This document shows, one piece after another, positions 18,708 through 46,417 of a stretch of DNA of 64,000 nucleotides (position 1 is its first letter; every line of letters starts with the position of its first letter). The translations under genes and the position numbers were made by a program. The DNA lies in contig CBDBNA010000011.1 of the NCBI GenBank assembly GCA_965207695.1, positions 4,193 to 68,192 of the forward strand, written 5' to 3'. This DNA comes from Dehalococcoidia bacterium. GTDB taxonomy: Bacteria > Chloroflexota > Dehalococcoidia > Bin125. Under the pieces are notes generated by a model. That model had not been told where the DNA came from and made no database searches. It worked only from the letters and a program-made list of their open reading frames with translations.

Positions 18708-19997
18708 CTAGCCGTCGCTCGCGGGCGTCCCCGCCGCGACCACGTCGGCGATGCGTTCCGCCAACGCCGCCCCGAGCGCCAGCAGATCGACGTCCGTCTC
18801 CCCGGCGCCGGCGGAGTCGCTGCCGGTCACGTTCACCGATCGCTGCAGGAAGACCAGACTCCCGTCCTGCGCGAAGATGACCAACTCCGTGGCGACGTCG
18901 CGCGTGCGGCGCCCTCCATCCTCGACGCCGTAGCGCAAGGCGTAGCGGATCGCCCGGCTGCCCAGCAGTGGGTCGGGCCGGCGCTCGCTCTCGAACAGCG
19001 TGTCGATCGGTTCGACGAGCTCCTTGATCTGGATGGACTCTCGCGTGGCGATGTAGTCGACGGCGGCGCGCGCCGCGTCCGCCGATTCCAGCATGATCGT
19101 GACGACGAAGATGAACTCTCCCGTGCCGTCGTTGTGGAAGCCTTGCCCGCTCGGCGCCCCGGCCGCGCCGGCGCGTTGCCCAAGCGCGGCGAGATCCCCG
19201 TCCGGGGATTCGCGCAGCAGTCCGGGGATGTCGTTGTAGAAGGGGATGGCGTCGAAGCCGGCCGGCAGGTCGCCGGGCACGACATCGACGATGGCGGCGA
19301 CCGGGCCGGGCGGATCCGGGTCGGGCGGGGCGTCCGGCGGGTCCGGTTCCCCGGTTCCGGGTTCGTCCCCGGGCCCGTTCCTCTCCGCTTCGGCAGCCGC
19401 GGCCGCCTCCGCGGCTGCCCGCGCCTCTTCGGCGGCCGCTTCGGCGGCCGCCCGCGCCTCCTCCGCGGCCGCCGCCTCGGCCTCCGCGGCCGCCTGCGCC
19501 GCCGCTCGCGCCTCCTCCGCGGCGGCCGCTGCCGCCGCGGCTGCCGCCGCCGCCTCGGCCGCGACCGCCGCCGCCTCGGCCGCGGCTTCCGCCTCCGCCT
19601 CCGTCGCGGCCTCCGCGTCCTCCGCCGCCGCTGCTCGTGCCGCCTCTGCCGCCGCTGCTTTCGCCGCCTCGGCTTCCGCCGCCGCCGCGGCCGCCGCGGC
19701 CGCCGCGGCCGCCTCCGCCGCCGCCGCGGCCGCCTCTGCCTCTGCCGCCGCCGCCTTCGCCGCCGCGGCGGCGGCTGCCGCTGCCGGGGCCTCCCCGGCT
19801 CCCACCTCGATCTGCTGGGGATCCTGCCCGGACGCCCCGTCGCCTTCCTGCAGCGGGACGATCACCCCGTCGCCGTCGCCCTCGCCGCCACAGGCCGTCG
19901 GCAGCAGCGCGCACAGCGCGATCGCGGCCACGGCCAGGGCGAATCGCGGCCGGGAACTCGGCGCGCGCGGGCGCGACGGACCGACGTGCCCTGTCAC
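18708..19997 (-). CDS. Lipoprotein with an approximately 170-aa Ala/Glu low-complexity tract and a globular C-terminal domain
   Basis: Lipobox LLPTAC, a tract of Ala/Glu repeats, and an ordered C-terminal domain. The start overlaps the histidine kinase stop by ATGA. Confidence 0.7.
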   Translation of the reverse strand: MTGHVGPSRPRAPSSRPRFALAVAAIALCALLPTACGGEGDGDGVIVPLQEGDGASGQDPQQIEVGAGEAPAAAAAAAAAKAAAAEAEAAAAAAEAAAAAAAAAAAAEAEAAKAAAAEAARAAAAEDAEAATEAEAEAAAEAAAVAAEAAAAAAAAAAAAEEARAAAQAAAEAEAAAAEEARAAAEAAAEEARAAAEAAAAAEAERNGPGDEPGTGEPDPPDAPPDPDPPGPVAAIVDVVPGDLPAGFDAIPFYNDIPGLLRESPDGDLAALGQRAGAAGAPSGQGFHNDGTGEFIFVVTIMLESADAARAAVDYIATRESIQIKELVEPIDTLFESERRPDPLLGSRAIRYALRYGVEDGGRRTRDVATELVIFAQDGSLVFLQRSVNVTGSDSAGAGETDVDLLALGAALAERIADVVAAGTPASDG

Positions 19998-21541
19998 GCG
20001 AACGGCTCCACCGGCTCCGCCTCCACCGGTTGATGCAGCCGCAGCAGGATGCGGAAGGTCGTGCCGGCGCCCTGTCGGCTGTCGACCTGGATCTCGCCCT
20101 TCTGGGCGCGTACCAGCTCCCGCGCGATGGCCAGGCCCAGCCCCGTGCCCCCTTCCGAGCCCGGGCGATCGGCGCGGTAGTAGCGATCGAAGAGGTGCGG
20201 TACCTGGTCCTCGGGGATGCCGGCCCCCGTATCGGAGACGGCGATGCCCACGGAGATCTCGCTCTCGCGGCGCGCGCTCAGCACCACGTTGCCCCCCGGC
20301 GGCGTGTGCCGCAGCGCGTTGTCGACGAGGTTGGCCAGCACCTGCTCCATGCGGTCCACGTCGCCCGAGACGGCCGGCAGGTCGGCCGGGATCACCTCCA
20401 GCCGGACGTCGAGCTGCTGCGCCCGCAGCACGAACAGTTCGCCGACGTTCTCCAGCACGTCGTTCACGTCGACGGGCTGCAGGTCGACCTGCACGTGGCC
20501 GGCCTCCATCCGCGAGAGGTCGAGCAGCCCCTCGACCAAACGCAGCAGCCGCCGCGATTCCTCCTCGATGATGCGGTAGGCGTTGCGCCGCGCGACCGAC
20601 TCGTCCACGGTGCCGTCCAGCAGCGCCTGGGAGAAACCGTTGATCGAGGTCAACGGCGTCTGCAGGTCGTGCGAAGCGTTGGCCAGGAAGTCACGCAGCG
20701 CCCCCTGCTGGCGCTGCACCTCCTCGGTCATCTGGTTGAAGGACTCGGCCAGGTCGCGCGCCTCCCGCGTGCCCTCCACGCTGACTTTCTGATCGAAGCG
20801 CCCCCGCGCGACGCTGCGGGCGGCGGCCGTCGTGGCCTGCAGCGGGCGGTAGATGGAGCGCGACAACAGCAGCCCCACGACGATCGCCGCCAGCAGCCCC
20901 ACGCCCCCGGCGAGGAGCAACTGCCGCGTCAGGTCGCCCAGCACCGCCTGCCGGTCCTCCACGGGCAGGGCGAGCACAACGAACTCGGCCGCGAAGCGCC
21001 GCGCCGCCTCGCCGGAGAGCGCCGCCGCCAGGTAGTCGAGCCGGGTCTCGTCGCCGGCCGTGAGGCGGCCCTCGATGAAGGTGTCGGTGGTGGCGCCGCT
21101 GAAGTCGATGTCCAGCTGCTCGCCGAGAAAGCGCGGCGAGCCGCTGGCCTCGCTGACGACCGCGCCGTCGCCGTCGACGAAGAGGATGCGCACGTCGGGG
21201 TCCAGCGGGATGCCGCCCCCGGTTGCGCCGGTCGCCAGCTGGCGACTGACCTCGAAGGCCTGGAAGTCGGAGCCCGGCGGCGTGACGACCGAGAGGTACA
21301 CCGGCCCGCCGATCTGGCGCAGCGTGGAGGCCGCCAGCCGGTCCTGGTAGCCGCCCAGCAGGAAGAAGAAGGCGACCCCGGCGATGCCCAGGGTGAGCAG
21401 GATCAGGAAGCCCAGCGTGACGTAGATGCGCGCCTGCAGCGTGGAGAGCAGGCCGGCGCCGCGACGGCGCGCGCGCCGTTGCTGCTCCGCGCTCCCCGCG
21501 GGCAGCGCGGCGCCTTCGAGCCGGACGCTATCCGTGGCCAT
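19994..21541 (-). CDS. Sensor histidine kinase (two TM helices, HAMP, HisKA, HATPase_c)
   Basis: H-box HDLQTPLTSI, plus N, G1 (DTGAGI) and G2 (GGTGLGLAI) boxes. Confidence 0.9.
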   Translation of the reverse strand: MATDSVRLEGAALPAGSAEQQRRARRRGAGLLSTLQARIYVTLGFLILLTLGIAGVAFFFLLGGYQDRLAASTLRQIGGPVYLSVVTPPGSDFQAFEVSRQLATGATGGGIPLDPDVRILFVDGDGAVVSEASGSPRFLGEQLDIDFSGATTDTFIEGRLTAGDETRLDYLAAALSGEAARRFAAEFVVLALPVEDRQAVLGDLTRQLLLAGGVGLLAAIVVGLLLSRSIYRPLQATTAAARSVARGRFDQKVSVEGTREARDLAESFNQMTEEVQRQQGALRDFLANASHDLQTPLTSINGFSQALLDGTVDESVARRNAYRIIEEESRRLLRLVEGLLDLSRMEAGHVQVDLQPVDVNDVLENVGELFVLRAQQLDVRLEVIPADLPAVSGDVDRMEQVLANLVDNALRHTPPGGNVVLSARRESEISVGIAVSDTGAGIPEDQVPHLFDRYYRADRPGSEGGTGLGLAIARELVRAQKGEIQVDSRQGAGTTFRILLRLHQPVEAEPVEPFA

Positions 21542-21560
21542 GGTCGGGGCCGCCCGCCCC

Positions 21561-22250
21561 TCACGCGTCGAGGGCGTCGCGGGGACCGGCGACGAGCTTG
21601 TAACCCACGCCGCGCAGCGTCTCGATCTTCACGGCGCTGCCCGCCAAATGCTGGCGCAGGTGGTTGACGTGCACGTCGACCGTGCGCGTCTCGCCGCTGA
21701 ACGTGTAGCCCCAGACGAGCGACAGCAGTTGCTCGCGCGACATCGCGATGCCCTCGTTCTGGGCCAGCGCGAAGAGCAGGTCGAACTCCTTCGTGCGCAG
21801 CGTCAGGGGGCGCCCCTCCAGGCTCGCCTCGCGCCGCTGCCGGTCGAGCTGCAGCGTGCCCACCTGCACGGTCGTGCCGGAGCGCTGGATGCCGTCGGAG
21901 CGGCGCAGGATCGCCTTGACCCGCGCGACGAGCTCCTTGGGGTTGAACGGCTTCGTCAGGTAGTCGTCGGCCCCCAGTTCCAGCCCGGCGACCTTGACGG
22001 TGTCCTCCTTGCGCACCGTGAGCATCAGGATCGGCACGTCGGATCGTTCCCGGATGCCCTTGGTGACCTCGAAGCCGTCGAGCTTCGGCATCATCAGGTC
22101 GAGCAGCACGAGGTCGGGCTGCGTCTGCAGCGCCTTCTCCAACGCCTCCGGGCCGTTGCTGGCGAACTCCAGGTCGTACCCCTCTTTCGACAGGTAGAGA
22201 CGGACGAGTTCGCGAATGTTGGGCTCATCGTCTGCGACCAGGATGCGCAT
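21561..22250 (-). CDS. OmpR-family response regulator
   Basis: Receiver domain (DDEP...DLVLLDLMMP...K) and a winged-helix output domain (TLRGVGYKL). ATG at 22250. The track ORF starts 68 codons earlier. Confidence 0.9.
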   Translation of the reverse strand: MRILVADDEPNIRELVRLYLSKEGYDLEFASNGPEALEKALQTQPDLVLLDLMMPKLDGFEVTKGIRERSDVPILMLTVRKEDTVKVAGLELGADDYLTKPFNPKELVARVKAILRRSDGIQRSGTTVQVGTLQLDRQRREASLEGRPLTLRTKEFDLLFALAQNEGIAMSREQLLSLVWGYTFSGETRTVDVHVNHLRQHLAGSAVKIETLRGVGYKLVAGPRDALDA

Positions 22251-22460
22251 CGGGGCCTCACTCCGGACCGTTGCCGGGGCAACGTGGATCAGGGGTCCGA
22301 CGGGCCCGCGCGCCGCACGGGGCGCCACTCGCCGACGGCCCGCGCCCCCGGCATCGGTCGCCGTCGCCCCATCGCAGTATAGCCCTGCGGAAGCGCGGAT
22401 ATCGCGCCGCGAATTCAGCCCGCGCCGATGTGTCCGCTCCGCCGCCGCCGCCATCTGGAC

Positions 22461-23384
22461 TCAGGCCGGCGCCCCCGCCAGGAATCGCCCGATCGCCTCC
22501 TCGAACGCGGCCGATTCCTGCGGCGAGAGATCGCGGTTCGGCGGCCGGCAATGCGGGACCGGCAGGCCGCTCGTGATCCCGATCAGCGACTTCAGGGCCC
22601 CGACGGGCTGGAAGGACTGCACCATGTCCTTGACGGCGTTGAGTTGGCGCTGCGCCCGCCCCGCGTCGCCGCCCCGCCGGAACGTCGACTGGATCGCGAT
22701 CGCCAGGGCGGGGACGGCGTTCGCCATCCCGCTGACGCCGCCGCCGCAGCCCGCGGCGTACAGCTCGGCGTGGACGTGGTCGGCCCCGGCCAGCACGACG
22801 AAGGACTCCGCGTCGGCCGTGGCGTCGATGTAGCGCTGCGTGCGGGCGACGTCGCCGCAGGAGTCCTTGATGCCGATCACCTGCTCGCCGAACAACTCCA
22901 GCAGCGCCAGCACGACCTCGTCGGCGATGTCCATCTTCGTGCGCGGCGGGATGTTGTAGAGCAGCACCCGCGCCTGCGCCGGCAGCGCCTCGATGACGCT
23001 GCCGAAGTAGTGCACCTGCCCCGCCGCATCGGTGTTGTCGTAGAAGTGCGAGGGCAGCAGGGCGACGGCGTCCGCCCCGGCGTCGAGCGCCTCGTTGGCG
23101 GCGCGGATCGTGTCGGGCAGCGCCAGGCAGCCCGCCCCCGCGACCACGCCCAGCCCGCCTCCCAGCGCGTCGCGCTGGGCCACCACCGCCTCCACGACCC
23201 GCCGCCGCTCCGCCAGCCCCACCGACGGCCCCTCGCCGTTGGTGCCCAGCGTCAGGATCGACGAGACGCCCTGGCCCTCCAGCCAGGCGATGTGGGCGGG
23301 CAGCCAGTCCAGGTCGACGCCGGCGCCGCCCTCGCCGAACGGCGTCACCTGGGCCACCATCAGTCCGGTCAAGTCGAGAGACAT
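22461..23384 (-). CDS. Dihydrodipicolinate synthase / N-acetylneuraminate lyase family protein (DapA-like)
   Basis: TIM-barrel DapA-family pattern (GTNGEG, the Schiff-base Lys region IGIKDS). Confidence 0.75.
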   Translation of the reverse strand: MSLDLTGLMVAQVTPFGEGGAGVDLDWLPAHIAWLEGQGVSSILTLGTNGEGPSVGLAERRRVVEAVVAQRDALGGGLGVVAGAGCLALPDTIRAANEALDAGADAVALLPSHFYDNTDAAGQVHYFGSVIEALPAQARVLLYNIPPRTKMDIADEVVLALLELFGEQVIGIKDSCGDVARTQRYIDATADAESFVVLAGADHVHAELYAAGCGGGVSGMANAVPALAIAIQSTFRRGGDAGRAQRQLNAVKDMVQSFQPVGALKSLIGITSGLPVPHCRPPNRDLSPQESAAFEEAIGRFLAGAPA

Positions 23385-23417
23385 CGGTCCTCCTCCGTTC
23401 GGCGCGCGCGCTTGGCG

Positions 23418-24602
23418 CTAGATCGCGCCGCTCTCCTGCAGTTCGGCCAGGGCGTCCGCGTCCAGCCCGAGCCGACCGTAGATCTCGCCGTTGTGCTCGC
23501 CCAGCAGCGGCGCGCGTCGGCGCACCCGGCCGGGCGTGTCGGTCAGTCGCGGCACCACGCCCGGCTGCAGCAGCGGTCCGAAATCGGCGCTCTCCACTTC
23601 CAAGACCTGCTCGCGCGCCGCGTAGTGCGGATCGGCGGCGATGTCGCTGGTGGTGTAGAGCTTGACCGCCGGCACGCCGTGCGCGTCGAAGGTCGCCTGG
23701 CACTCGGCCAGGCAGCGCTCGGCCACCCAGGCCCGGATGATGGCGTGCAACTCCTCGTGATGCTCGCGGCGCTGCTCCCCCCGGGCGTAGGTGGGGTCGT
23801 CGGCGAGATCCGGCCGCTCGATCGCCGCCGCCAGCCGGGCGAAGACGCGGTCGGTCGTGGCGTTGATGATCAGGTGCTCGCCGTCGGCGGTCTGGAACTG
23901 CTCGGCCGGCACGACGCCGGGGAAGTAGTTGCCGGAACGCTCGCGGTTCCGCCCCGTCTGCCCGAACGCGCCGACGTGGGTGCCGCTCATCCGCCAGATC
24001 GCTTCGTACAGCGCCTGGTCGACGTCCTGCCCGCGGCCGGTGCGCTGCCGGGCCTGCAGCGCCAGCAGCGCGCCCAGCGCCGCGAACGTACCTGCCCCGT
24101 AGTCGGCGATCATGTAGCCGGGGCGCACGGGCGGGCGGTCCGCCTCGCCCGTCAGCGCCGTGAGGCCGCCGAAGCTCAGCGCCACCCGGTCGAAGCCGGC
24201 CCGCTCGCGGTAGGGGCCGGTCTGCCCGTAGCCGCTGATCCGCACGACGATGAGCCCCGGGTTCGACGCGCGCAGGCCCTCGGGCGCCAGGTCGAGCCGC
24301 TCCAGCGTCCCCGGACGGAAGTTCTCGACCAGGATGTCGGCGGTGTCGATCAGCTGCTTCAGCACGGCGATGCCCGCGGGAGACTTGAGGTTGCACGTCA
24401 CCGACAGCTGGCCGCGGTTGTCCTGCGGGAAGGCGATGCTGCCGCGCAGGCCGTCGCCGCTGCCGGGCCGCTCGACCTTGATCACCTCCGCGCCGAATTC
24501 GCCCAGCAGCGTCGCGCAGTACGACGCCGCCAGCACCTGCCCCAGCGACACGACGCGGATCCCGGAGAGGGCGGCGGGCTCGGCCGGTTCGGGAGGCGTC
24601 AT
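23418..24602 (-). CDS. CoA transferase, family III (CaiB/BaiF)
   Basis: N-terminal GIRVVSLGQVLAASYCATLLGEFGAEVIKVE motif and the conserved Asp region. Confidence 0.85.
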   Translation of the reverse strand: MTPPEPAEPAALSGIRVVSLGQVLAASYCATLLGEFGAEVIKVERPGSGDGLRGSIAFPQDNRGQLSVTCNLKSPAGIAVLKQLIDTADILVENFRPGTLERLDLAPEGLRASNPGLIVVRISGYGQTGPYRERAGFDRVALSFGGLTALTGEADRPPVRPGYMIADYGAGTFAALGALLALQARQRTGRGQDVDQALYEAIWRMSGTHVGAFGQTGRNRERSGNYFPGVVPAEQFQTADGEHLIINATTDRVFARLAAAIERPDLADDPTYARGEQRREHHEELHAIIRAWVAERCLAECQATFDAHGVPAVKLYTTSDIAADPHYAAREQVLEVESADFGPLLQPGVVPRLTDTPGRVRRRAPLLGEHNGEIYGRLGLDADALAELQESGAI

Positions 24603-27714: not shown

Positions 27715-29154
27715 GTGGAACACCCCCCGCTGCCCGCGCACATCTTCCGCGCCTACGACGTGCGCGGCCTCGCCGGCGACGAGTTGACGGCGGACGTCGT
27801 CTATCGCACGGCGCGGGCGCACGGCACGTTCCTGCAACGACGCTTCGAGGCCCAGACCGCGATCGTGGCGCGCGACAGCCGTCCCAGCTCCCCCGCGCTG
27901 TACGACGCGGCGCTGCGCGGGCTGCGCGAGTGCGGCCTGCGGGTGACCGCCCTCGGTCTGGCGCCCAGCCCGCTGCTCTACTACGCGCTGCACCGCTGGG
28001 GCCTGGGCGGTGGCATCGTCGTCACGGCCAGCCACAACCCCGTCGAGTTCAACGGCCTGAAGCTGCTCCGCGAGGAGGCGATGCCCCTCCTGCCGGACGA
28101 GATCCAGGCCGTGCGGCGCCTCGCCGAGGCGGGCGACTTCACCGCCTCGACCCTCGATCCGGCACCCCCCATCCAGCGCGACCCGGCCCCCGACTACCTG
28201 GAGATGCTGCGCGGCCGCTTTCGCCTGGAGCGGTCCCTGAAGATCGTGGCCGACCCCGGCAACGGCGTCGCGACGCTGACCGGGCCGCCGGCGCTGCGGG
28301 CGCTGGGCGCCGAGGTCGTCGGACTGCACACGGAGTTGCTCGAAGGCTTCCCGCACCACCTGCCCGACCCGCAGGAGCCGGGCAGCATGCGGGAGCTGGC
28401 GGTCCGCGTCGTCGCCGAGGGGGCGGATCTGGGCATCGCCTGGGACGGCGACGGCGACCGCGTCGGCCTGGTCGACGAGACCGGCCGCCGCTACGACCCC
28501 GATTGGATTGCGGCGCTGCTGGCCCGCGATGTGCTCTCCCGCCACCCCGGCGCGCGCATCCTGATGGACCTCAAGAGTTCGCGCTCCCCCATCGCCGACG
28601 TGCGGGGCCACGGCGGCGAGCCCGTCCTGGCCCGCACCGGCTACTCGATCTTCCGCCGCCGCATGCGCGACGAGGGCATCGTCTTCGGCGGCGAGGCCAG
28701 CGGGCACATGATCTTCGGCGAGGACTACCCCTGCCTCGACGACGGCGTCTTCGCCGCCTGCGCCATCGCGCGCATCGTCTCGGCCGGCCCGGAGCCGCTC
28801 TCGGCGCACTTCGCGGGCATGCCCCGCTACGTGACCTCGAACGAGATCAAGCTGCCCTGCCCCGACGCCGCCAAGTTCGGCGTCGCCGAGGCCGTCGCCG
28901 ACGCGTTCCGGGGTCGCTACGAGATGCTGGAGGTCGATGGCGCGCGGGTCGAGTTCCCCGACGGCTGGTTCCACCTCCGTGCGTCGAACACCAGCCCCTA
29001 CCTCTCGCTGCGCATTGAGGCCGAGACGCGGCCCGCCTTCGACGAGATCCGGGCGGCGGTCTGGGACGCCCTGGCCCCGCACTCGGAGGTGACGCTGGCC
29101 GGCGCCGCCGCGGAGCCGCTGCCGCCCGAGGGCTTCTTCGAGGCCGCTCCCTAG
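27715..29154 (+). CDS. Phosphomannomutase / phosphoglucomutase (alpha-D-phosphohexomutase family)
   Basis: Active-site TASHNP, the Mg loop DGDGDR, and the GEASGH sugar-binding motif. GTG start. Confidence 0.85.
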   Translation: MEHPPLPAHIFRAYDVRGLAGDELTADVVYRTARAHGTFLQRRFEAQTAIVARDSRPSSPALYDAALRGLRECGLRVTALGLAPSPLLYYALHRWGLGGGIVVTASHNPVEFNGLKLLREEAMPLLPDEIQAVRRLAEAGDFTASTLDPAPPIQRDPAPDYLEMLRGRFRLERSLKIVADPGNGVATLTGPPALRALGAEVVGLHTELLEGFPHHLPDPQEPGSMRELAVRVVAEGADLGIAWDGDGDRVGLVDETGRRYDPDWIAALLARDVLSRHPGARILMDLKSSRSPIADVRGHGGEPVLARTGYSIFRRRMRDEGIVFGGEASGHMIFGEDYPCLDDGVFAACAIARIVSAGPEPLSAHFAGMPRYVTSNEIKLPCPDAAKFGVAEAVADAFRGRYEMLEVDGARVEFPDGWFHLRASNTSPYLSLRIEAETRPAFDEIRAAVWDALAPHSEVTLAGAAAEPLPPEGFFEAAP

Positions 29155-29184
29155 GACCTGTTCACATGTGATGGGCGTTCTGGC

Positions 29185-29480
29185 GGGACGGTTGACTTCC
29201 CTTCGCTCTACCCGCTAAACTGCGTTTATGGACCGCACACCGCGTATTCTGTCACCGGACCGACGCCCCTCGCGGACTCGGATGAGCCCGTGAAAGATCG
29301 TGAAAGATCGTGAAAGATCAGGCAAGTTCATGTCGGTTTTCTGCTCTCCGATGCTCCCCAATGCGCGCCGGTGCAAGCCCATGACCCCCGATGACTCATC
29401 GTGCCCGACCAAGATCCCCAGTAAACATGGGGTTTTCTGCCTCTCCGGCTCTCGCCGGGCGCCCCACAGAAAAAAAACGC
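29185..29480. repeat. Left copy of the inverted promoter-plus-leader module (IR-A)
   Basis: Aligns at about 80-85% identity, with short indels, to the reverse complement of 35185-35485. It contains CGTGAAAGAT x3 (29289-29318), two GGTTTTCTGC(C)TCTCC copies, and a CTCGCCGGGCGCCCCACAGAAAAAAAAC block. Confidence 0.8.
29192..29221 (+). promoter_or_regulatory. Sigma70-like promoter TTGACT-18-TAAACT reading into the hbd operon
   Basis: Near-consensus -35 and -10 hexamers at the outer edge of IR-A. The equivalent TTGCCT-17-TATATT sits at the outer edge of IR-B on the opposite strand. Confidence 0.5.
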
Positions 29481-29599
29481 GGCTCGAACCGTTCGTTTTG
29501 GGGCCCAGGATCCCCCTCCGCGATGCGCCGACGCCGATGTGAAGGGGCCCCGGCTGCCGGGCGGGTTGCCCTACGATGCACGGCGGATTAGGAGCCCCC

Positions 29600-30496
29600 A
29601 TGTCCGACACCGAACAGGCCGCCTCCGCGGCTGTCCCCCCCGTCCGCACGCTGGCCGTCATCGGCGCGGGCAGCATGGGCCATGGCATCGCGCAGACGGC
29701 CGCGCTGGCGGGCATCACGACGATCCTCCACGACGTCGACCAGCCCGCCGTCGACCGGGGCGTGGCCGGCATTGAGGTCGGCCTGGCGCGAATGGTCGCG
29801 CGCGACCGCCTCAGCGCCGATGAGCGCGACGCGACGCTCGGCCGCCTCCACGCCACGACCGACCTGGAGGCCGCGGCAGACGCGGACGCCGTCATCGAGG
29901 CCGCGCCGGAACGGCTGGCGCTGAAGCAGGAGATCTTCGCCCGGGTGGACGCGCTCTGCGAGCGGGCGATCTTCCTGGCCAGCAACACCTCGTCGCTGTC
30001 GTTGCAGGCCATCGCCGCGAGCACGGCCCGTCCCGAGCGCGTCTTGGGCCTGCACTACTTCAACCCGGCCCAGGTTCTGCCCCTGGTAGAGGTCGTGAGC
30101 CCGATGACCGTCGATCCGGCCGCCGTCGACGCGGCCGAGGCCTACTGCCGCGCGACCGGCAAGACGCCGATCCGCGTCCAGGACACGCCGGCGTTCGTCG
30201 TCAACCGGCTGTTCGTCCCCTTCGCGCTCGACGCGATCCGGCTGCTGGAGTCGGGCGTCGCCTCGGCGGAGGACATCGACCGGGCCTGCCAGCTCGGCGT
30301 GGCGCACAAGATGGGCCCCCTGGCGACGTGCGACCTCTCCGGCCTCGACGTGCTCCTCGACGTCGCCGACGCGATGCGGGCCGAGACCGGCGACGCTCGC
30401 TGGAACGCGCCCACCCTGCTGCGCCGCCTCGTGTCGGCGGGGCGCCTCGGGCGCAAGACCGGACGCGGCATCTTCGATTACTCGGAAGTCGGCTAG
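29600..30496 (+). CDS. hbd: 3-hydroxyacyl-CoA / 3-hydroxybutyryl-CoA dehydrogenase
   Basis: NAD-binding VIGAGSMGHGIAQ, and the catalytic region SNTSSL...HYFNPA (HFFNP motif). ATG with GGAG 9 nt upstream. Confidence 0.85.
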   Translation: MSDTEQAASAAVPPVRTLAVIGAGSMGHGIAQTAALAGITTILHDVDQPAVDRGVAGIEVGLARMVARDRLSADERDATLGRLHATTDLEAAADADAVIEAAPERLALKQEIFARVDALCERAIFLASNTSSLSLQAIAASTARPERVLGLHYFNPAQVLPLVEVVSPMTVDPAAVDAAEAYCRATGKTPIRVQDTPAFVVNRLFVPFALDAIRLLESGVASAEDIDRACQLGVAHKMGPLATCDLSGLDVLLDVADAMRAETGDARWNAPTLLRRLVSAGRLGRKTGRGIFDYSEVG

Positions 30497-30537
30497 TCTG
30501 ACCCCCGGCCGACGCAAGCAGCGCCGATACCAAGGCC

Positions 30538-31737
30538 ATGACGAGAGGAGACGCCGTGCCCGGGCCGCTCGACGGAATTCGCATTCTCGACTTCTCGCGC
30601 TTCCAGCAGGGGCCGGCCGCCACCGTCATGCTCTCCGACCTCGGCGCGGACGTGATCAAGGTCGAGCCGCCCGGCGGCGGCGACCTCGGGCGCAGCCTCG
30701 GCCTCGAACCCGACGGCTGGTGCTCGTACTTCGAGGCGCATAACCGCAACAAACGCTCTATGACGCTCAACCTCAAGGCGCCGCGGAGTCTGGACATCCT
30801 GCAAAAGTTGATCCCCGAAATCGATGTCGTAGTGGATAATTTCCGGCCCGGCGTATCGGCGCGGTTGGGCATCGACCTGGAATCGCTGCGTCCGTATAAC
30901 CCCATGATCATCACCGCCAGCGGGACGGGTTACGGCGAACGCGGACCGATTGCCCAGGAGCCCTCGTTCGATATCAACGGCATGGCGATGGGCGGCATCA
31001 TGTATTCGCAGGGCGGCGGCCCCGACCGGCCGCCGGAGACCGTGCAGCTCGGCTTCGCCGATCAGGTCGGCGCGATGAGCCTCGCCCTCGCCATCGTGTC
31101 CGCGATCGTCGCCCGCGACCGCCAGGGCGTCGGCCAGCACGTCGAGTCGTCGCTGCTGGGCGCGCAGATCAGCCTGCAAACCTGGTACATCACCGACTTC
31201 CTGCGGCGCGGCGAGCAGGGCCCCACGCCGCAGCGGCGGATGCCCATCTTCAACTACTACCGCGCCGCCGACGACCGCTACCTGACCATCGCCATCCTGG
31301 ACCCGCGCTGGTTCCGGCCGCTCTGCGAGGTCCTGGGCCGCCCCCACCTGGCCGATGATCCTCGGTTCACCGACGCGTTCGCGCGCCAGGAGCAGCGCGA
31401 CGTGCTCATGGCGGAGCTGGACGCCGTCTTCGCCGAGCGCCCCCGCGACGAGTGGCTGCAGGTGCTGCGCGAGGCCGGTATCCCGGTCGCGCCCGTGCAC
31501 GACTACGCCGCCGTGACCGAAGATCCGCAGGTGCTCGCCAACGAGTACATCACGACGCTGGAGCATCCGTCGCTGGGCACGATCGGCGTGACCGGCACGC
31601 CGATCAAGATGTCGGAGACGCCGACCGGGCCGCGCGCCACCGCCCCGGAACTCGGCTTGCACACCGAGGAGATCCTGCTCGGCCTCGGTTACGACTGGGA
31701 CGACATCGCCGCGCTCAAGGACGAGGGTGTGATCTGA
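30538..31737 (+). CDS. CoA transferase, family III (CaiB/BaiF)
   Basis: GIRILDFSRFQQGPAATVMLSDLGADVIKVE and conserved family III core motifs. Confidence 0.85.
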   Translation: MTRGDAVPGPLDGIRILDFSRFQQGPAATVMLSDLGADVIKVEPPGGGDLGRSLGLEPDGWCSYFEAHNRNKRSMTLNLKAPRSLDILQKLIPEIDVVVDNFRPGVSARLGIDLESLRPYNPMIITASGTGYGERGPIAQEPSFDINGMAMGGIMYSQGGGPDRPPETVQLGFADQVGAMSLALAIVSAIVARDRQGVGQHVESSLLGAQISLQTWYITDFLRRGEQGPTPQRRMPIFNYYRAADDRYLTIAILDPRWFRPLCEVLGRPHLADDPRFTDAFARQEQRDVLMAELDAVFAERPRDEWLQVLREAGIPVAPVHDYAAVTEDPQVLANEYITTLEHPSLGTIGVTGTPIKMSETPTGPRATAPELGLHTEEILLGLGYDWDDIAALKDEGVI

Positions 31738-31870
31738 TCCGCCGTTCCTGTTGCGGCGTTTTCGTATCGACCGCCCGCCTGCGTCAAGCGCGTGGTATAT
31801 TCGCGCGGCAGTGAAACGTCCGGCGCGACTCCGTCCCCCTTGGCGTAAGCCGCGCTGGGCAAACGCAGAA

Positions 31871-32677
31871 ATGGATGTTGTCACCGTGAACGATACGCAA
31901 TCCGAATCGACCGCCGCCGCTAAGGCCCGGCAGCCCGCATACGTCAGCTACCCGATGTTCGAGGCCTGCCTCGACTGGCTGGGCGGCATGGACCCCGTCC
32001 CCGCCCAGATCGACCGCCCGCAGTGGAGCGCGCGCTTCGGCGGCGCCAGCGGTGCCCAACTGCTGGTCGGCCTGCGTTCGCTGGGCCTGCTCGACGGCGG
32101 CGCGCCGACGACCGCCCTCGTCGACCTGGCCAAGGCCTCCGGCGACGCCAGGCAGGAACAGCTGCGCGCCGTCCTGCGCACCGCCTACGGCGACGACCTC
32201 GTCGACAACCTCGCCGGCATGAGCCTCGCATCGGTCGAGGAGGCGATCCGCGCGCTGGGCACGACCGACGCCACCCATCGCCGCGCCCTGCCCTTCTTCA
32301 TCAACGCCGCCAAGGCCGCCGGCATCGAGATGCAGGACGAAGTCTCGAAGCGCGCCCGCAAGCGGCGCAGCGACGCGGGCGTGAAGCGGGCCGGGAAGAA
32401 GGCCGCGAAGAAGGCTGCCAAGAAGCGCGCCCCCGCGGCCAAGCGCGGCCGCAAGCGCCGGGCGCGCAAGGCGCCGGCGGCTCCTGCCCCCGCCCCCCCG
32501 CCCCCGCCCGCTCCGGAGCCGCCCGCCCCGCCCGCCGCGCCGAAGGACTACGGCGTCGTCAACGCGATCGTCAGCCGGCTGCCGGCCGACGGCATCTGGA
32601 CGGCCGAGGCCCGCGCCCAGTGGCTGGCCGCCCTGACGGCCGTGGTCGACCTCGAGGTCGGCGTCTCCGACGGCTGA
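31871..32677 (+). CDS. Hypothetical protein with a Lys/Ala/Pro-rich histone-H1-like basic tail
   Basis: Ordered N-terminal domain, then KRARKRRSDAGVKRAGKKAAKKAAKKRAPAAKRGRKRRARK...PAPAPPPPPAPEPPAPP, then a short ordered C-terminus. ATG at 31871. Confidence 0.5.
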   Translation: MDVVTVNDTQSESTAAAKARQPAYVSYPMFEACLDWLGGMDPVPAQIDRPQWSARFGGASGAQLLVGLRSLGLLDGGAPTTALVDLAKASGDARQEQLRAVLRTAYGDDLVDNLAGMSLASVEEAIRALGTTDATHRRALPFFINAAKAAGIEMQDEVSKRARKRRSDAGVKRAGKKAAKKAAKKRAPAAKRGRKRRARKAPAAPAPAPPPPPAPEPPAPPAAPKDYGVVNAIVSRLPADGIWTAEARAQWLAALTAVVDLEVGVSDG

Positions 32678-32729
32678 GCCCGATGCAGCCGTTTGACGCT
32701 GCCCCGCCTCCCCGGGAGGATCGGGGGGC

Positions 32730-33488
32730 ATGGCTCGCACCACTCGCCTGAAGCGACGGCTGGTCCGGCGCCCCGACCCCGCGGCGTCCCGTCGGACGAC
32801 GCTGCCCTGGCGGCGGCGCTACCGGCTGCTGGTACAACTCGGCGCGCTGGCCAGCCTGGCCGTGGTGCTGGTGGCCGTAGTGCTGCTGTTCCCCCGCACT
32901 GACGACGGCCCCACCGCGCGCGAGGAGCGGGCGCTAGCGGAACTGTCCCTCGCGCGGTCGATCGATGTCGCGCCGGCCGACTTGCCCGCCGACTGGGGCC
33001 CGACGGGCCTGGGCTTCGGCCTCTGGGTCAACCTGCGCCGCAGCAACCTCGGCGCCGCCACCGCCTTCGCCGACTCCCCCTCGGGTGGCGGCCAGGGCTG
33101 GGCCTCCAGCGACCCCGCCGCGCGCATCGACATCAGCACGGGCATCATCATCGGCGATGACGAGGCCCAGGCCGCCGCCGCCCTCGCGCGCCTGCGGGAG
33201 GCCACCCCCGCCGAAACCGCCGCCTACGTCGAGCCCACCCACCACCAGGTGCTCGGTATGACCGTGCTCCCCACCGACGACGCGCGTACCTTCGCCTTCG
33301 CCCTCGAATTCCGCCGCAACACCGTCGAGAGCCGCATGACCGTCTACTGGCGGCAGGTGGGCCGCTCGCTCATCTTCGCCGCCCAGATCAGCGCCCGCGC
33401 CGCCGGGCCCATCCCCTGGCAGCCCGACCTGCCCTCCAGGCTCGACGACATCACCGCCTCCGTCGAGGCGGCCTCGGCCGGGCCCTAG
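32730..33488 (+). CDS. Membrane-anchored hypothetical protein (N-terminal TM helix, extracytoplasmic domain)
   Basis: Basic N-terminus followed by a TM helix (LVQLGALASLAVVLVAVVLLF). Protein-like composition. Confidence 0.5.
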   Translation: MARTTRLKRRLVRRPDPAASRRTTLPWRRRYRLLVQLGALASLAVVLVAVVLLFPRTDDGPTAREERALAELSLARSIDVAPADLPADWGPTGLGFGLWVNLRRSNLGAATAFADSPSGGGQGWASSDPAARIDISTGIIIGDDEAQAAAALARLREATPAETAAYVEPTHHQVLGMTVLPTDDARTFAFALEFRRNTVESRMTVYWRQVGRSLIFAAQISARAAGPIPWQPDLPSRLDDITASVEAASAGP

Positions 33489-35077
33489 GGCAGCGGCACG
33501 ACCAGGTCCGTGTCCGCCGAGGTGACCACCCAGAAGGCGTCGCCGCGGACGATGGCGATGTCGGCGCGCAGCCGCGGCGGCAAGCCGGGGCTGTCGAGGC
33601 GCCAGCCGTTGACCTGATCCCAGACCCAGATCCGGACGATCGCCGGGTTGCCGTCGATGATCGCGCGGGAACTGCTGGGCGTGCCGAACCAGCCGACCAG
33701 CGAGAAGCCGGCCGGCAGCGGGACCAGCGCCTGGTTCAGGTGGTCGTTGTCGGTGATGGTGACGTCGAGCGTGACGACGCCCAGCCCCGCGCCGGTGGCG
33801 ATGTGGTGGATGTGGTGGACGTGCTCGCCCTCGTCGCGGTCGTCATCGATCGCCTCGACCAGCACGGTCCGCGGCTGCGCCCAGTCGCGCGGCTGGAACA
33901 CGATCCGGATCGGGCTGACGCGCAGGTCGTCCTCGGCCTGGATGGAGACGGTGACGGGGACGGACGGACGCCGGCGCAGCGCGACGGTGTAGGTGTCGTG
34001 GCCGCCGTCCTCGGCGACGGCCGTGCCGCCGCCGGACTCCGTGATGTGCACCGCGGGCGAATGATCGTCGGCGATGGGGATGGGGACTTCGACCGCGGGG
34101 GCGCTGCGCGGCCCGGTCTTGAGCGTGAAGGTGAGGACGCCGGTGTGATCGCCTTCGGGATCGTCGTCATCGACCGCGAAGACGGCGAACTCGACCAGGC
34201 TGTTCCAGTTGGAGGCGTCGAAGCGGAACTCCGAGCTGGAGACGGTGAGCTCGTCGTCCGGCGTGACGGTCACGGTCGCATCGCCGCCGGGGTTCGCGCT
34301 CAGACGCAGGGAGACGAAGTCGGGGCGGCCCCCCTCGATCAACTCCGTGCTGCCGCCGGAGTGCGTGACGATGATGGTGAAACTGTCGTCGCCGATGATG
34401 GTGACGGACAGCGGGTGGTTGCCGGAGCCGGTGTAGCCGCCCCCCGTCGCGGCATGGGTGATGACGATGTCGCGGGTGCCGGCGCGGCGCGGATCGTCGC
34501 GGGCCCTCAGCGTGACCCGTTTGGGCGTGGCGTAGTCGGCGGCGGAGAAGCGCAGCGTGTGGGGCGAGATCTCGATGTGCTCGGCGCCGGAGATCGCGAT
34601 CGTCACGGGGCCGGTGGGGCGCATGCTCAGCGCGACGGTGTAGACGCCCGAGGTGCCGCGCTCGGTGAGGCGGAGGCCGGCAACCCCCCCGAACGTCAGG
34701 CTGGGCACGACGTAGGTGAAGGCGCCCACGCCGGCGCCGGCGCTGACGCCGTCGGGGCTGGTGACGACGACGTCGATGAGGCCGGCCCGCGAGACGGTCG
34801 GCACGGTGGCTTCGATCGCCCGGTCGTTGCGGACGCTGAACTCGGCCCGGCGTCCCTCGAAGGTGACGGCGGTCGCGGCGGTGAAGTGCTCCCCGGTGAT
34901 GGTGACGACGGTTCCCGCGAGGCCCGTGTCGGGCGTGACGCCGGTGACGACGGGCGGCCCGACGGCCCCGACGGCGGCGGGCGAGAGCGCCGCGCCGGCC
35001 AAAACGGCGCCGATCAGGAGCAGCAGGGCACGCCAAGGCATCGATCGGATCGCTTTCCCGCCGACCCGGCGACGCAT
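33485..35077 (-). CDS. Secreted IPT/TIG-domain protein with Ig-like repeats and one copy of the recurrent C-terminal domain
   Basis: Signal peptide, an IPT/TIG-like N-terminal domain (PVVTGVTPDTGLAGTVVTITGEHF), and a GFSLVGWFG...WVWD...GDAFWVV C-terminal module. The start could be M1 or M13. Confidence 0.75.
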   Translation of the reverse strand: MRRRVGGKAIRSMPWRALLLLIGAVLAGAALSPAAVGAVGPPVVTGVTPDTGLAGTVVTITGEHFTAATAVTFEGRRAEFSVRNDRAIEATVPTVSRAGLIDVVVTSPDGVSAGAGVGAFTYVVPSLTFGGVAGLRLTERGTSGVYTVALSMRPTGPVTIAISGAEHIEISPHTLRFSAADYATPKRVTLRARDDPRRAGTRDIVITHAATGGGYTGSGNHPLSVTIIGDDSFTIIVTHSGGSTELIEGGRPDFVSLRLSANPGGDATVTVTPDDELTVSSSEFRFDASNWNSLVEFAVFAVDDDDPEGDHTGVLTFTLKTGPRSAPAVEVPIPIADDHSPAVHITESGGGTAVAEDGGHDTYTVALRRRPSVPVTVSIQAEDDLRVSPIRIVFQPRDWAQPRTVLVEAIDDDRDEGEHVHHIHHIATGAGLGVVTLDVTITDNDHLNQALVPLPAGFSLVGWFGTPSSSRAIIDGNPAIVRIWVWDQVNGWRLDSPGLPPRLRADIAIVRGDAFWVVTSADTDLVVPLP

Positions 35078-35184
35078 GATCGCTCCGTCCGTCTCATTCT
35101 AGAGCCTGTTCACAACCGCGCCAGGCATCGCGGATGAGGGCGAAGCCGGGCCGCTGGGGGGGTCATGGGCCTCGAAATGCAAGG

Positions 35185-35485
35185 AGTTTTTTTTCTGCGG
35201 GGCGCCCGGCGAGAGGCTGCGAGGAGAAAACCGCCATGTTCATTGGCGATCTTGCTCGGTCACGCTGGAGCATCGGCGGTCATGGGCGTGCACTGGCGTG
35301 CACCGGCGCGCATTTGGGAGCATTGGGGAGCACGAACCTGCACGCACTTTCACGCACTTTCACGTTCTTTCACGTTCTTTCACGGGCTCAGGCGAGTCCG
35401 CGGGGGGCGCGCCGGGCCGGTGTCAGAACACGCGATATGCGTTCCATGAACGCAATATAGTGGATGGCACCAGGGAAGGCAAGCC
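35185..35485. repeat. Right copy of the inverted promoter-plus-leader module (IR-B)
   Basis: Reverse complement matches IR-A. It carries CTTTCACG-type tandem repeats x4-5 at 35337-35394 and a T8 run at 35187-35194. The promoter TTGCCT-17-TATATT is on the minus strand at about 35454-35482. Confidence 0.8.
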
Positions 35486-35578
35486 CTCGCCCATGGCGAC
35501 GCGGCGGAGCCGCCGGTCGGGTAGACTAGTGTGGCTCACCCGGGCGCCCGGTCACCGGACGAAGTAAGGCAGGACGGC

Positions 35579-36292
35579 ATGGTCACCGCCGCCAAGATCG
35601 ACCCCAAGTCGCCCGTCTTCGCGCCGCGGTACTCGTACGCGGAAGCGGAGCGCCTGGCCGGCGTCTCCCGCGGGACCGCGAAGCGGTGGCTGAGGGGCTA
35701 CCACCACCGCGGGCCGGATGGCGAGCCGCGGTTCCGTGCGCCCGTGATCCCCGGGGAACGACTGGACGATGCGGATGGGTACGTCTCGTTCGCTGATCTC
35801 GTGGAAATCGCGGCGCTCAAGCGCTGGCGAGACCTGCGATGGCCCCCTCCCACGATCCGGAAGGTCGCCGAAGGATGCCGGCAGATCTTCGGAGTCGACC
35901 GGCCGCTGATCACGGAGCGCTTCCAGCGGGAGGCCCCAGGCGTCTTCGCGGACGCGATCGCCCATTTCGCCGATCTGTCCCCCCGGCAGCGCAAGCAGGC
36001 GTGGGAGACGATGCGGGCCTTTGTGGACACCCTGGACTACGAGGGCGATTTCGTTTCGGCTTGGTGGCCCCGTGGCAGGGATGTTCCGGTCGCCATCGAT
36101 CCCGACTACGGATTCGGGCTGCCGGTGGTGGTGTGCTCGGGGCTGCGCACGCTCCTGCGCACCGAGATCGTGCTGGAGCAGTTCCGCGCCGGCGAGACGG
36201 CGGCGGCGATCGCGGCGGACTACCGCCTTCCCGTGCGATCGATCACCGCGGCGATCGATTTCGAGGCGTCACTGTCTCCCGAGCCCGCATGA
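35579..36292 (+). CDS. DUF433-domain protein with an N-terminal HTH extension (antitoxin-like)
   Basis: C-terminal DUF433 signature (LRTEIVLEQFRAGETAAAIAADYRLPVRSITAAIDFEA) and an N-terminal HTH (YAEAERLAGVSRGTAKRWL). Confidence 0.65.
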   Translation: MVTAAKIDPKSPVFAPRYSYAEAERLAGVSRGTAKRWLRGYHHRGPDGEPRFRAPVIPGERLDDADGYVSFADLVEIAALKRWRDLRWPPPTIRKVAEGCRQIFGVDRPLITERFQREAPGVFADAIAHFADLSPRQRKQAWETMRAFVDTLDYEGDFVSAWWPRGRDVPVAIDPDYGFGLPVVVCSGLRTLLRTEIVLEQFRAGETAAAIAADYRLPVRSITAAIDFEASLSPEPA

Positions 36293-36681
36293 TCCTGATC
36301 GACGCGTCGGTCGCGCAGCGCGTCGCGCGGGAACTCGGCGAGGCTCGCGGCGACGTGCTGTCGGGCGCCGACATCTACCCGAGCGGCACCGAGGACACGA
36401 TCTGGCTCATGGAGGCCGGCGTCAACGGCTGGCTCGTGATCACACGGGACAAGAGGATCGTCAGGCGGCCGGCCGAGCGGCAAGCGATCCGGGATCACGC
36501 CGTCGGGGCGTTCATCATCGCGCAGAAGCGGGATCCGACGGCCGCGGAGTACCGGCGTATCATCTCCGCCACCCTCGCGAAGATGGAGGCCCTCTTCGAG
36601 AGCACGCCGCGTCCGTTCGTCTTCCGGATCGACTCGGAGTTGCAGTTCCGCCAGGTCCTCGCTGCGGAATCACCCTCGTAG
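36289..36681 (+). CDS. DUF5615 (Mut7-C / PIN-like) protein (toxin-like partner of DUF433)
   Basis: MILIDASV...GTEDTIWLMEAGVNGWLVITRDKRI pattern. ATGA overlap with the upstream DUF433 gene. Confidence 0.65.
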   Translation: MILIDASVAQRVARELGEARGDVLSGADIYPSGTEDTIWLMEAGVNGWLVITRDKRIVRRPAERQAIRDHAVGAFIIAQKRDPTAAEYRRIISATLAKMEALFESTPRPFVFRIDSELQFRQVLAAESPS

Positions 36682-36702
36682 CCCTCGGCCCTGCCCCCTG
36701 AC

Positions 36703-45596: not shown

Positions 45597-45674
45597 GGTG
45601 GGCGTCGCCTAGAGGCCTAAGGCGCCAGGTTGTGGCCCTGGTATTCGCGGGTTCGAATCCCGCCGTCCACCCCA
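45597..45674 (+). tRNA. tRNA-His (GTG)
   Basis: Cloverleaf, read from 45597: G-1 paired to C73, acceptor GTGGGCG/CGTCCAC with one G-U pair, anticodon stem CCAGG/CCTGG, loop TTGTGGC, T-arm GCGGG-TTCGAAT-CCCGC, and an encoded CCA. Confidence 0.85.
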
Positions 45675-45739
45675 CACGTACCTTCAGCAGAGCGCACCGA
45701 CCATCCGGCCGGAGCGGCGCGAGTCTGCCGGGAGTTCCC

Positions 45740-46340: not shown

Positions 46341-46417
46341 GCGCCCGTAGCTCAGTGGAACAGAGCATCAGACTTCGGATCTGAGGGTCGGGGGTTCGAG
46401 TCCCTCCGGGCGCGCCA
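46341..46417 (+). tRNA. tRNA-Arg (TCG)
   Basis: Acceptor GCGCCCG/CGGGCGC, D-arm GCTC-AGTGGAACA-GAGC, anticodon stem TCAGA/TCTGA with loop CTTCGGA, T-arm GGGGG-TTCGAGT-CCCTC, discriminator G, and an encoded CCA. Confidence 0.85.

Follow-up and report, generated by a model that had tools for sequence, protein, structure and literature searches.

A low-copy, probably MITE-like element with a predicted promoter and a 10-nt minisatellite, present in two diverged copies in a Chloroflexota genome

Promoter-bearing MITEs and the minisatellite-bearing BrickBuilt element are already known (PMC10969869, PMC4596501). BrickBuilt, a MITE of Porphyromonas gingivalis, resembles the element described here in being short, intergenic and non-coding, with small inverted ends and promoter elements, and in framing a spacer-less minisatellite of variable copy number with a ‘leader’ and a ‘tail’ (PMC4596501). 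It differs in its 23-nt unit, 19 copies per genome, bidirectional promoter activity and occurrence in Bacteroidota (PMC4596501), whereas the present element, which we liken to BrickBuilt by description only, is built on a 10-nt unit, equal to one turn of the helix, whose R-T-G core is conserved and whose copies form a gradient of degeneration; it has a single directional predicted promoter, low copy number, CTAG flanks and a Chloroflexota host. The Correia elements (CREE) of Neisseria are MITEs located at TA, immediately upstream of genes, with sigma70-like promoters that can drive the neighbours; they contain an internal binding site for the IHF protein and influence transcript termination and processing (PMC10969869). 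They are, however, about 100–155 bp long, with long terminal inverted repeats (TIRs), hundreds of copies and no tandem array, and their promoters arise at or near the element ends, unlike that of the present element (PMC10969869).

With respect to target site, MITEPsy1 and ISPsy2 (IS5-type) of Pseudomonas syringae use CTAG (or YTAA) with duplication (PMC3189936), while the target of IS630 is the TA in CTAG (Tenzen & Ohtsubo 1991, as cited in PMC2170065). TIRs beginning with GG/GA are common to MITEPsy1/ISPsy2, IS630 and the present element (PMC3189936; PMC2170065), but MITEPsy1 is 100 nt long and without promoter or array (PMC3189936). Insertion between operon genes was described for Chunjie, a MITE from Geobacter uraniireducens (Chen et al. 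2008, summarized in PMC10969869). Similarly, the left copy at our locus and a copy in another Chloroflexota MAG (L010) split gene pairs that lie 40–54 bp (PGM–hbd) and 130–183 bp (thrS–accC) apart in relatives. Chunjie differs in its length of 178–235 bp and in its copy number, about 38 full plus 57 partial, and the summary in PMC10969869 describes neither an internal promoter nor a 10-nt array for it.

Two diverged copies of one element

We analyzed a 64-kb stretch of DNA, hereafter the window, for which a preliminary description had reported two inverted copies of one module of ~300 bp at 80–85% identity. The inverted pair was recovered by gapped blastn, which aligned 29212–29478 (+) with 35454–35186 (−) at 223/281 identities (79%, E = 3e-50), and by an inverted-repeat search returning arms I1 (137 nt, 79%) and I2 (75 nt, 81%). 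Every conserved block listed earlier was found in the sequence. Homology of the two regions therefore stands, but the identity had been set slightly too high, being 79% in the core and about 70% over the full element. The homologous unit also exceeds the length first given and reaches outward to CTAG-flanked inverted termini in both copies:

29155..29549, + strand: left copy, ~395 bp, 61% GC, after the stop codon of PGM/PMM and before the ribosome-binding site of hbd; delimited by homology to the right and L010 copies, empty sites in relatives and a GC dip
35103..35525, − strand: right copy, 423 bp, 64% GC, upstream of the IPT/TIG gene, with CTAG at both edges

The GC content of the elements (61–64%) compares with about 72–75% in the flanks and 72% in the window. 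No reading frame is conserved between the copies, and blastn detected no further copies within the window. We regard the modules as probably two copies, inserted independently and since diverged, of a single MITE-like element of 395–428 bp that is non-autonomous, non-coding and low in copy number. In the best reading, it represents a new MITE family of low copy number that targets CTAG in the manner of IS630 or IS5.

Termini and CTAG flanks

The element ends are inverted termini of the form G(G/A)NCCTGTTCACA adjoining CTAG. Exact matches to the 10-mer CCTGTTCACA are confined to two positions in the window, 29157 (left 5′ end) and 35105 (right 3′ end), each just 3′ of a CTAG. The 5′ terminus of the right copy (35513–35525) is degenerate, with no recognizable 5′ TIR. 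In the L010 copy, the 5′ end and the reverse-complemented 3′ end match over CTGTTCAC and then imperfectly for ~40 nt. The same 13-nt terminus was also seen in L018, on an unrelated 265-bp MITE with TA flanks inside CTAG/CTAA. Termini and flanks in the window are as follows:

29151..29154, no strand: CTAG, 5′ flank of the left copy, containing the PGM/PMM stop codon TAG
29155..29167, + strand: 5′ TIR of the left copy, GACCTGTTCACAT, from terminus alignments
29536..29549, + strand: 3′ TIR of the left copy, partly degenerate, GATGTGAAGGGGCC
29550–29553, no strand: 3′ counterpart of CTAG at the left copy, reading CCGG
35099..35102, no strand: CTAG, 3′ flank of the right copy
35103..35116, − strand: 3′ TIR of the right copy; the + strand reads AGCCTGTTCACAAC, equal to the left copy 5′ end
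35526..35529, no strand: CTAG, 5′ flank of the right copy, forming a perfect direct duplication with 35099–35102

The flank pairs are thus CTAG/CTAG for the right copy, CTAG/CCGG for the left copy and CTAG/CCAG for L010, and the CCGG at 29550–29553 is probably a decayed CTAG. CTAG is scarce, with 34 occurrences in the 64 kb of the window. In a 72% GC genome this rare site is frequently one whose TAG serves as a stop codon, so that the element lands right after an upstream gene and right before the next. Insertion would have duplicated either TA inside CTAG, as for IS630, or the 4-bp CTAG, as for IS5-type elements; because CTAG is a palindrome, the 2-bp and 4-bp duplications are indistinguishable. 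A transposase recognizing these termini would have mobilized the element in trans; our searches found no autonomous IS with matching termini.

Filled and empty sites in relatives

Sister lineages at 76–88% protein identity preserve the gene order PGM-hbd-CoA-transferase-x-x-...-TIG. The PGM–hbd spacing, 445 bp in the window, is 48 bp in L001, 54 bp in L003 and L004 and 40 bp in L015, and after excision of the left element the window aligns straight through the empty site of L001. A closer relative, L016 (96% hbd identity), contains the element, as its 3′ end shows. At the TIG junction of L015, a single CTAG precedes the TIG start by 17 nt. The third copy, in L010, is located between thrS and accC, where the two genes stand 563 bp apart when the element is present (L010, L011, L012 and L014) and 130, 183 and 146 bp apart when it is absent (L013, L023 and L025, respectively); the empty site of L013, as that of L015, has one CTAG. 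At three separate sites, some close relatives have the element and others lack it, and three independent insertions are known (PGM–hbd, IPT/TIG and thrS–accC). The earlier suspicion of something mobile is borne out by this insertion polymorphism, the element’s own termini and the CTAG flanks.

With 76.6% overall and 87.5% over the 3′ half, the copy from the other genome resembles the left copy more than the right copy does (69.9% overall, 79% in the core); local duplication is therefore not the origin of the pair in the window. Across 185,579 species genomes the exact conserved block was matched once, JGI metagenomes gave no match, and about 170 kb of relatives’ sequence contained no additional copies. 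With so few known copies, the high copy number usual for MITEs is not seen here.

Two homologous 300–400-bp sequences in inverted geometry, 5.7 kb apart, could also be the terminal inverted repeats that bound a composite transposon of 6.3 kb or an invertible (phase-variable) segment, as the preliminary description had proposed, with a cargo that might be missing in relatives. We give this reading next to no credence. The cargo is present in L001 and L015, which lack both copies but keep the internal genes (PGM, hbd, CoA-transferase, two unknown genes, ..., TIG) in identical order and orientation. Moreover, every copy is bounded by two ends and CTAG flanks of its own, and the only two termini still intact (29157+ and 35105+) run the same way along the + strand, as direct rather than inverted repeats. 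Identity of 70–79% is a poor substrate for homologous inversion, and no transposase, invertase, integrase or recombinase was found among the 48 ORFs of the window.

Predicted promoter, 10-nt array and downstream genes

A promoter scan of 29000–35700 returned exactly two sigma70-like sites, one per copy, where shuffles expect 0.2. Both near-consensus promoter sequences noted earlier were recovered and are conserved across copies, and each copy has, as predicted, an inward promoter-like site about 370 nt before a start codon. The internal features are listed below:

29192..29221, + strand: sigma70-like promoter, left, TTGACT-18-TAAACT, kept in the L010, L011 and L014 copies
29228..29230, + strand: conserved ATG at the predicted +1, 7 nt past the −10 hexamer
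29289..29429, + strand: 10-nt minisatellite, left, three perfect CGTGAAAGAT units, then ~10 degenerate units with an N-R-T-G core
29411..29438, + strand: terminator-like hairpin AAGAUCCCCA-N7-UGGGGUUUU; terminator scan match at 29416–29432
29449..29478, + strand: best-conserved block CTCTCGCCGGGCGCCCCACAGAAAAAAAAC with an A8 tract, 29 of its 30 positions shared by the left, right and L010 copies
35186..35215, − strand: conserved block of the right copy, CTCTCGCCGGGCGCCCCGCAGAAAAAAAAC
35235..35384, − strand: 10-nt minisatellite, right, 15 consecutive units, R-T-G in a single register in 14
35454..35482, − strand: sigma70-like promoter, right, TTGCCT-17-TATATT, from the promoter scan

The ORF following the conserved ATG differs between copies (21, 19 and 28 codons). 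The ATG may be a relic of a leaderless transposase start; the 5′ part of the element (TIR, TTGACT-18-TAAACT and ATG at +1) would then derive from the leaderless transposase promoter and start of a parent IS. In all three independent insertions the promoter faces the adjacent downstream start codon, although the same orientation in 3/3 insertions (p = 0.125) is statistically not compelling.

The reported direct repeats at 10-bp phasing were confirmed by TRF and a repeat search, which counted 3.1 perfect CGTGAAAGAT copies in the left array and 4.4 copies in the right one. Beyond the preliminary count, the 10-nt register runs on for 13–15 units with an N-R-T-G core. The left array contains one +1 register shift at 29349, and the right array opens with four CGTGAAAG(AA/TG) units. 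RTG recurs in one phase 14/17 times in the right copy and reaches six in the left, compared to at most about four in any 150-nt window on either strand outside both copies. Columns of the R-T-G core vary less between copies than the other positions (2/21 versus 19/49, Fisher p = 0.02), while repeat number ranges from 2 to 5 and differs even between the near-identical contigs L010 and L011. The array would be a slippage-prone minisatellite and, judged from its sequence, the helically phased core most likely provides a one-face platform for protein binding or bending by a transposase, host factor or regulator.

RNAalifold pairs the hairpin at alignment columns 199–225, with one compensatory change (C-G to G-C) in the right copy. 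Together with the less variable core and promoter-like sites at equal orientation and distance (~370 nt) from both start codons, this small hairpin and its U-tract would fit a native leader, a riboswitch- or attenuator-like RNA or operator array co-regulating the hbd operon and the IPT/TIG gene, as first suggested. We consider such a leader very improbable. Rfam gave no match to the module even at E ≤ 10, the MFE z-scores of the two copies were +0.30 and −1.74, and the RNAalifold covariation term was unfavorable (+1.56). The module has TIRs and CTAG flanks, is missing from orthologous intergenic regions of relatives at 76–88% protein identity and precedes the unrelated accC in another genome, there too as an insertion; the empty sites and the accC insertion largely refute a shared native leader.

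Somewhat less improbable, but still unlikely, is that the main product is a small RNA of ~210 nt, starting (+1) near 29228 or 35447 and ending at the hairpin/U-tract near 29438 or 35225, with phased RUG repeats as a sponge or platform for an RNA-binding protein and downstream genes touched by read-through only. Small RNAs derived from MITEs are known (PMC5896051; PMC10969869), which counts in its favor. Promoter and terminator-like hairpin, with its compensatory change, are conserved in all copies, and the array lies wholly between them. Against it, the hairpin is weak (five G-C-rich pairs, four U), an overall folding signal is lacking and repeat number is variable, even between L010 and L011. 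We also know of no RNA-binding system with a 3-nt core at 10-nt spacing.

For the preferred reading, a MITE-like insertion, the predicted promoter would read over the minisatellite, the weak hairpin/U-tract and the 3′ end into the downstream gene, reaching the hbd operon, the IPT/TIG gene and accC. Insertion would thereby supply a promoter and a leader of about 370 nt, and the downstream genes may be driven or attenuated by the element.

Copies, termini and target site of the element

The preliminary description had proposed that two modules in the window are similar in inverted orientation, and gapped blastn bore this out, aligning 29212-29478 (+) with 35454-35186 (-) over 223 of 281 positions (79%, E = 3e-50). 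All sequence blocks listed in that description are present in both copies, and a repeat search delineated two ungapped inverted arms, one 137 nt long at 79% identity and the other 75 nt long at 81%. Homology between the copies runs outwards on both sides as far as defined ends, a feature previously overlooked. No further matches to either copy were found elsewhere in the 64-kb window (blastn).

Features of the window referred to in the text
29155-29549 (+), left copy of the element, between PGM/PMM and hbd
29192-29221 (+), sigma70-like promoter TTGACT-18-TAAACT, consensus scan
30538-31737 (+), CoA-transferase of the hbd pair
35103-35525 (-), right copy of the element, upstream of the IPT/TIG surface-protein gene
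35482-35454 (-), sigma70-like promoter TTGCCT-17-TATATT, consensus scan
35531-36292, HTH_66 and DUF433, member of a toxin-antitoxin-like pair
within 35839-36681, ORF with PIN_10 domain, member of the same pair
45598-45671 and 46341-46414 (+), two tRNA genes

A genome-wide scan identified a third copy between thrS and accC in the metagenome-assembled genome COS3_bin_15 (JAPOXB010000071.1), the one exact-block match in the species-representative genome set. Four contigs carry the thrS-accC copy (L010, L011, L012 and L014). Overall identity of the left copy is 76.6% with the L010 copy, rising to 87.5% in the 3' half, versus 69.9% with the right copy; the two window copies are, therefore, not a local duplication. 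These identities imply descent from source copies that had already diverged, and thus a family with a history of movement.

Termini conforming to the consensus G(G/A)NCCTGTTCACA mark the left copy at its 5' end, the right copy at its 3' end and the L010 and L014 copies at both ends. In the left copy the 3' terminus is degenerate, and in the right copy a 5' terminus is absent or not recognizable; the right copy is, therefore, probably immobile. The exact 10-mer CCTGTTCACA is found twice in the window, at 29157 and 35105, each time starting 2 nt past a CTAG; the first position belongs to the left copy's 5' end and the second, as read on the + strand, to the right copy's 3' end. The ends of the L010 copy match one another as G[CT/GC]CTGTTCAC, followed by an imperfect match of ~40 nt.

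Flanking sequences are CTAG/CTAG for the right copy (35099, 35526), CTAG/CCAG for L010 and CTAG/CCGG for the left copy, while empty sites have one CTAG or TAG, revealing a target-site duplication. CTAG is scarce in the window (34 sites versus 62 expected). In the two co-directional cases, the TAG stop codon of the upstream gene lies within the surviving 5' CTAG, which is presumably why only this CTAG outlasted GC-biased decay. A 2-bp TA duplication is characteristic of IS630 and a 4-bp CTAG or YTAR duplication of the IS5 group; because CTAG is palindromic, with CTAG[X]CTAG equal to C-TA-[GXC]-TA-G, the two are indistinguishable here. Both have precedents, with CTAG duplicated by MITEPsy1 (PMC3189936) and IS630 targeting TA within CTAG (Tenzen & Ohtsubo 1991, as cited in PMC2170065).

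Among viral contigs, a search for matching IS termini returned only an unrelated MITE (miniature inverted-repeat transposable element) with an identical 13-nt terminus. This textbook 265-bp MITE (L018:1803-2071, IMGVR_UViG_2551306410_000001) has 25-bp perfect terminal inverted repeats (TIRs; GGGCCTGTTCACATTTAATCTGCGAG), whose first 13 nt are identical to the window element's termini, and its interior is an unrelated long palindrome. It is flanked by TA inside CTAG...CTAA, which fits an exact TA duplication better than a 4-bp one. The common 13-nt terminus hints at a wider element group served by related transposases.

Insertion polymorphism among relatives

Relatives of the source organism (Chloroflexota, Dehalococcoidia/Tepidiformaceae) were retrieved at the first locus through the CoA-transferase and hbd. 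They keep the gene order PGM, hbd, CoA-transferase, two unknown genes, ..., IPT/TIG. The PGM-hbd gap measures 445 bp in the window versus 48 bp in L001 (83% CoA-transferase identity) and 54 bp in L003/L004 (76%), with 40 bp in L015 (88% hbd identity). Excision of 29155-29550 lets the window align straight across the L001 junction (...GCTCC[C/A]TAG|CGG...). In L016, a relative with 96% identity, the 3' end of the element is present upstream of hbd; the PGM-hbd insertion is, therefore, younger than the split from the 88% lineage. This contig (Logan SRR16090825_480616, 1144 nt) breaks off within the element at a point 89 nt upstream of hbd, and its end resembles a repeat-induced assembly break, hinting at further copies in that genome.

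At the TIG site, the comparison covers the gene-proximal flank only, since on the distal side a different and variable toxin-antitoxin island is found. Here L015 shows one lone CTAG, located 17 nt upstream of the TIG start at the very junction reached by the right copy. Relatives with 83-87% AccC identity contain 130-183 bp and no element between thrS and accC. Presence/absence polymorphism was thus found at orthologous sites in a comparison of three sites, and at PGM-hbd and thrS-accC the flanks align across the gap after element removal. The element is a TIR-bounded, CTAG-flanked non-coding insertion, polymorphic for presence and absence.

These comparisons bear on two readings offered previously. 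A cis-regulatory RNA or operator native to both transcription units is unsupported, as the module is missing at the orthologous sites of relatives yet present before accC. Rfam searches of the whole window at gathering thresholds and of the left copy at E <= 10 returned only two tRNAs and noise. A structured leader RNA likewise found no backing in folds and RNAalifold analysis of four distinct copies, which showed neither a stability nor a covariation signal apart from a single small hairpin: MFE z-scores were +0.30 and -1.74, the covariation term was unfavourable (+1.56 kcal/mol) and a double change occurred in 5 of 68 pairs (4 sequences). The second reading, a composite transposon or invertible segment bounded by the repeats, conflicts with synteny of the cargo genes in relatives without repeats and with the lack of a transposase or invertase in the window. 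None of the 48 GC3-supported ORFs of the window encodes a transposase or recombinase, and its context is that of an ordinary chromosome. A template/variable repeat pair of a diversity-generating retroelement was also rejected, as the copies are intergenic, their differences are not adenine-specific and no reverse transcriptase is present. For annotation, the module pair should be taken neither as a riboswitch-like leader nor as a cassette boundary.

Other features of the window were recorded alongside. The toxin-antitoxin-like pair (35531-36700) lies directly outside the right copy, while in L001 and L015 such genes occupy the opposite side of the TIG gene; the 35.1-37.7 kb region, with its lower GC3, resembles a variable islet. 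An unknown 308-aa protein (31751-32677) without a Pfam match contains several short GC-rich tandem repeats at 32389-32541 (periods 12, 15, 30 and 9). A second family-III CoA-transferase with an adjoining DHDPS-family gene (22461-24602, -) is located about 6 kb upstream of hbd and its CoA-transferase, an arrangement kept in L001 and L015. A 212-aa ORF (45632-46270), also without a Pfam match, passed the GC3 filter and overlaps the first tRNA gene with its 5' end.

Predicted promoter, hairpin and phased array

The sigma70-like promoters proposed earlier were recovered as the only two sites in 29000-35700, where a consensus scan expects 0.2. All three insertions face the adjacent start codon, located 21-135 nt past the end of the element. 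A hairpin, AAGAUC[C/G]CCA-N7-UGG[G/C]GUUUU, is conserved among copies with one compensatory change, and it resembles a weak intrinsic terminator. Six-frame translation revealed no reading frame conserved across four copies; indels of 1, 2 and 10 nt break the frame between copies.

TRF detected the predicted period-10 tandem arrays in both copies, and the 10-nt register, as had been overlooked, reaches well beyond the perfect repeats. The right copy contains 15 consecutive 10-nt units (35384 to 35235), with 14 of 17 RTG in one phase, and the left copy 13 units with one +1 slip. Background phasing on both strands outside the copies is <= about 4 RTG in one phase per 150 nt; the left copy has 6. 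Information per unit position is 0.64, 1.01, 1.40, 1.77, 0.77, 0.19, 0.40, 0.83, 0.33 and 0.09 bits, and columns variable between copies number 2/21 in the R-T-G core versus 19/49 elsewhere in the array (p = 0.02). Perfect CGTGAAAGAW units number three (left), four (right), three (L010), two (L011) and two (L014), differing between L010 and L011 although these are 99.8% identical, as is typical of replication slippage.

On sequence grounds, the helical phasing and conservation of the R-T-G core suggest that a protein binds on one face or that bendability is directed. The array is the sole feature of the element without a ready explanation and the only one that could hide something new. We regard it as improbable, while worth stating, that the element serves as a portable cassette of 'promoter plus operator', in which 13-15 helically phased R-T-G(M) units form a one-face platform coated or wrapped by a specific protein. 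An alternative, likewise improbable, is that these repeats act as a protein sponge in an approximately 210-nt transcript. The array protein of the cassette reading might be a winged-helix regulator that binds in tandem, a nucleoid protein or the transposase of the element itself. Were the cassette reading true, genes downstream of new insertions would fall under control of the array protein, a mobile regulon-rewiring device in Chloroflexota.

OmpR-type regulators bind direct repeats phased at 10-11 bp, and the window encodes an OmpR-type two-component system (19994-22454, -; HAMP/HisKA/HATPase_c kinase and Response_reg/Trans_reg_C regulator). It was rejected as a partner of the array, being syntenic in relatives without the element, with nothing tying the pair to the array. 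In the viral-contig scan for the tandem unit, the only match was a giant-virus minisatellite (L006:6510-6755, GVMAG-M-3300009182-61, 30% GC) of about 25 tandem 10-bp units GACGTGAAAR, which shares the 8-mer core CGTGAAAG with the window array; the match was judged a probable coincidence arising from the search pattern.

Family assignment, proposed mobilization and significance

At 395-428 bp, the copies fall within the MITE size range (under about 600 bp, without a transposase ORF) and have terminal inverted repeats. They probably constitute a new, apparently low-copy family belonging to an already known element kind (MITE-like). MITEs with sigma70-like promoters are well documented, including Correia, MITEAba12, QMITE1 and SonMITE_1 (PMC10969869), and in P. 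gingivalis the BrickBuilt element has inverted ends and an internal minisatellite together with promoter activity (PMC4596501).

The window contains no cognate autonomous IS with the termini of the element. Neither the element nor the L018 MITE matched plasmid and phage collections (blastn, distant mode). In JGI metagenomes, the best-conserved 21-mer yielded no true copy, with three matches, all by chance, in sulfatase-like coding sequence, and the terminus string retrieved only unrelated primer sequences from the literature. We propose that the element would be mobilized in trans by an IS630-like (TA in CTAG) or IS5-like (CTAG) transposase. A leaderless transposase gene start may survive as a remnant in the 5' TIR, the promoter and the ATG at the predicted +1; the mini-ORF starting at this ATG is not kept among copies. 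Transcription from the promoter could cross the element and enter the next gene, and the weak hairpin may attenuate it.

The findings add a MITE-like family to the record for poorly studied, uncultured Chloroflexota. The scarcity of CTAG in a genome of high GC content channels insertions to the junction of a stop codon and the next gene, and insertion splits once-tight gene pairs (PGM-hbd and thrS-accC) while bringing a new predicted promoter. If this promoter is active, the family would represent a natural case of promoter mobility reshaping operon structure.
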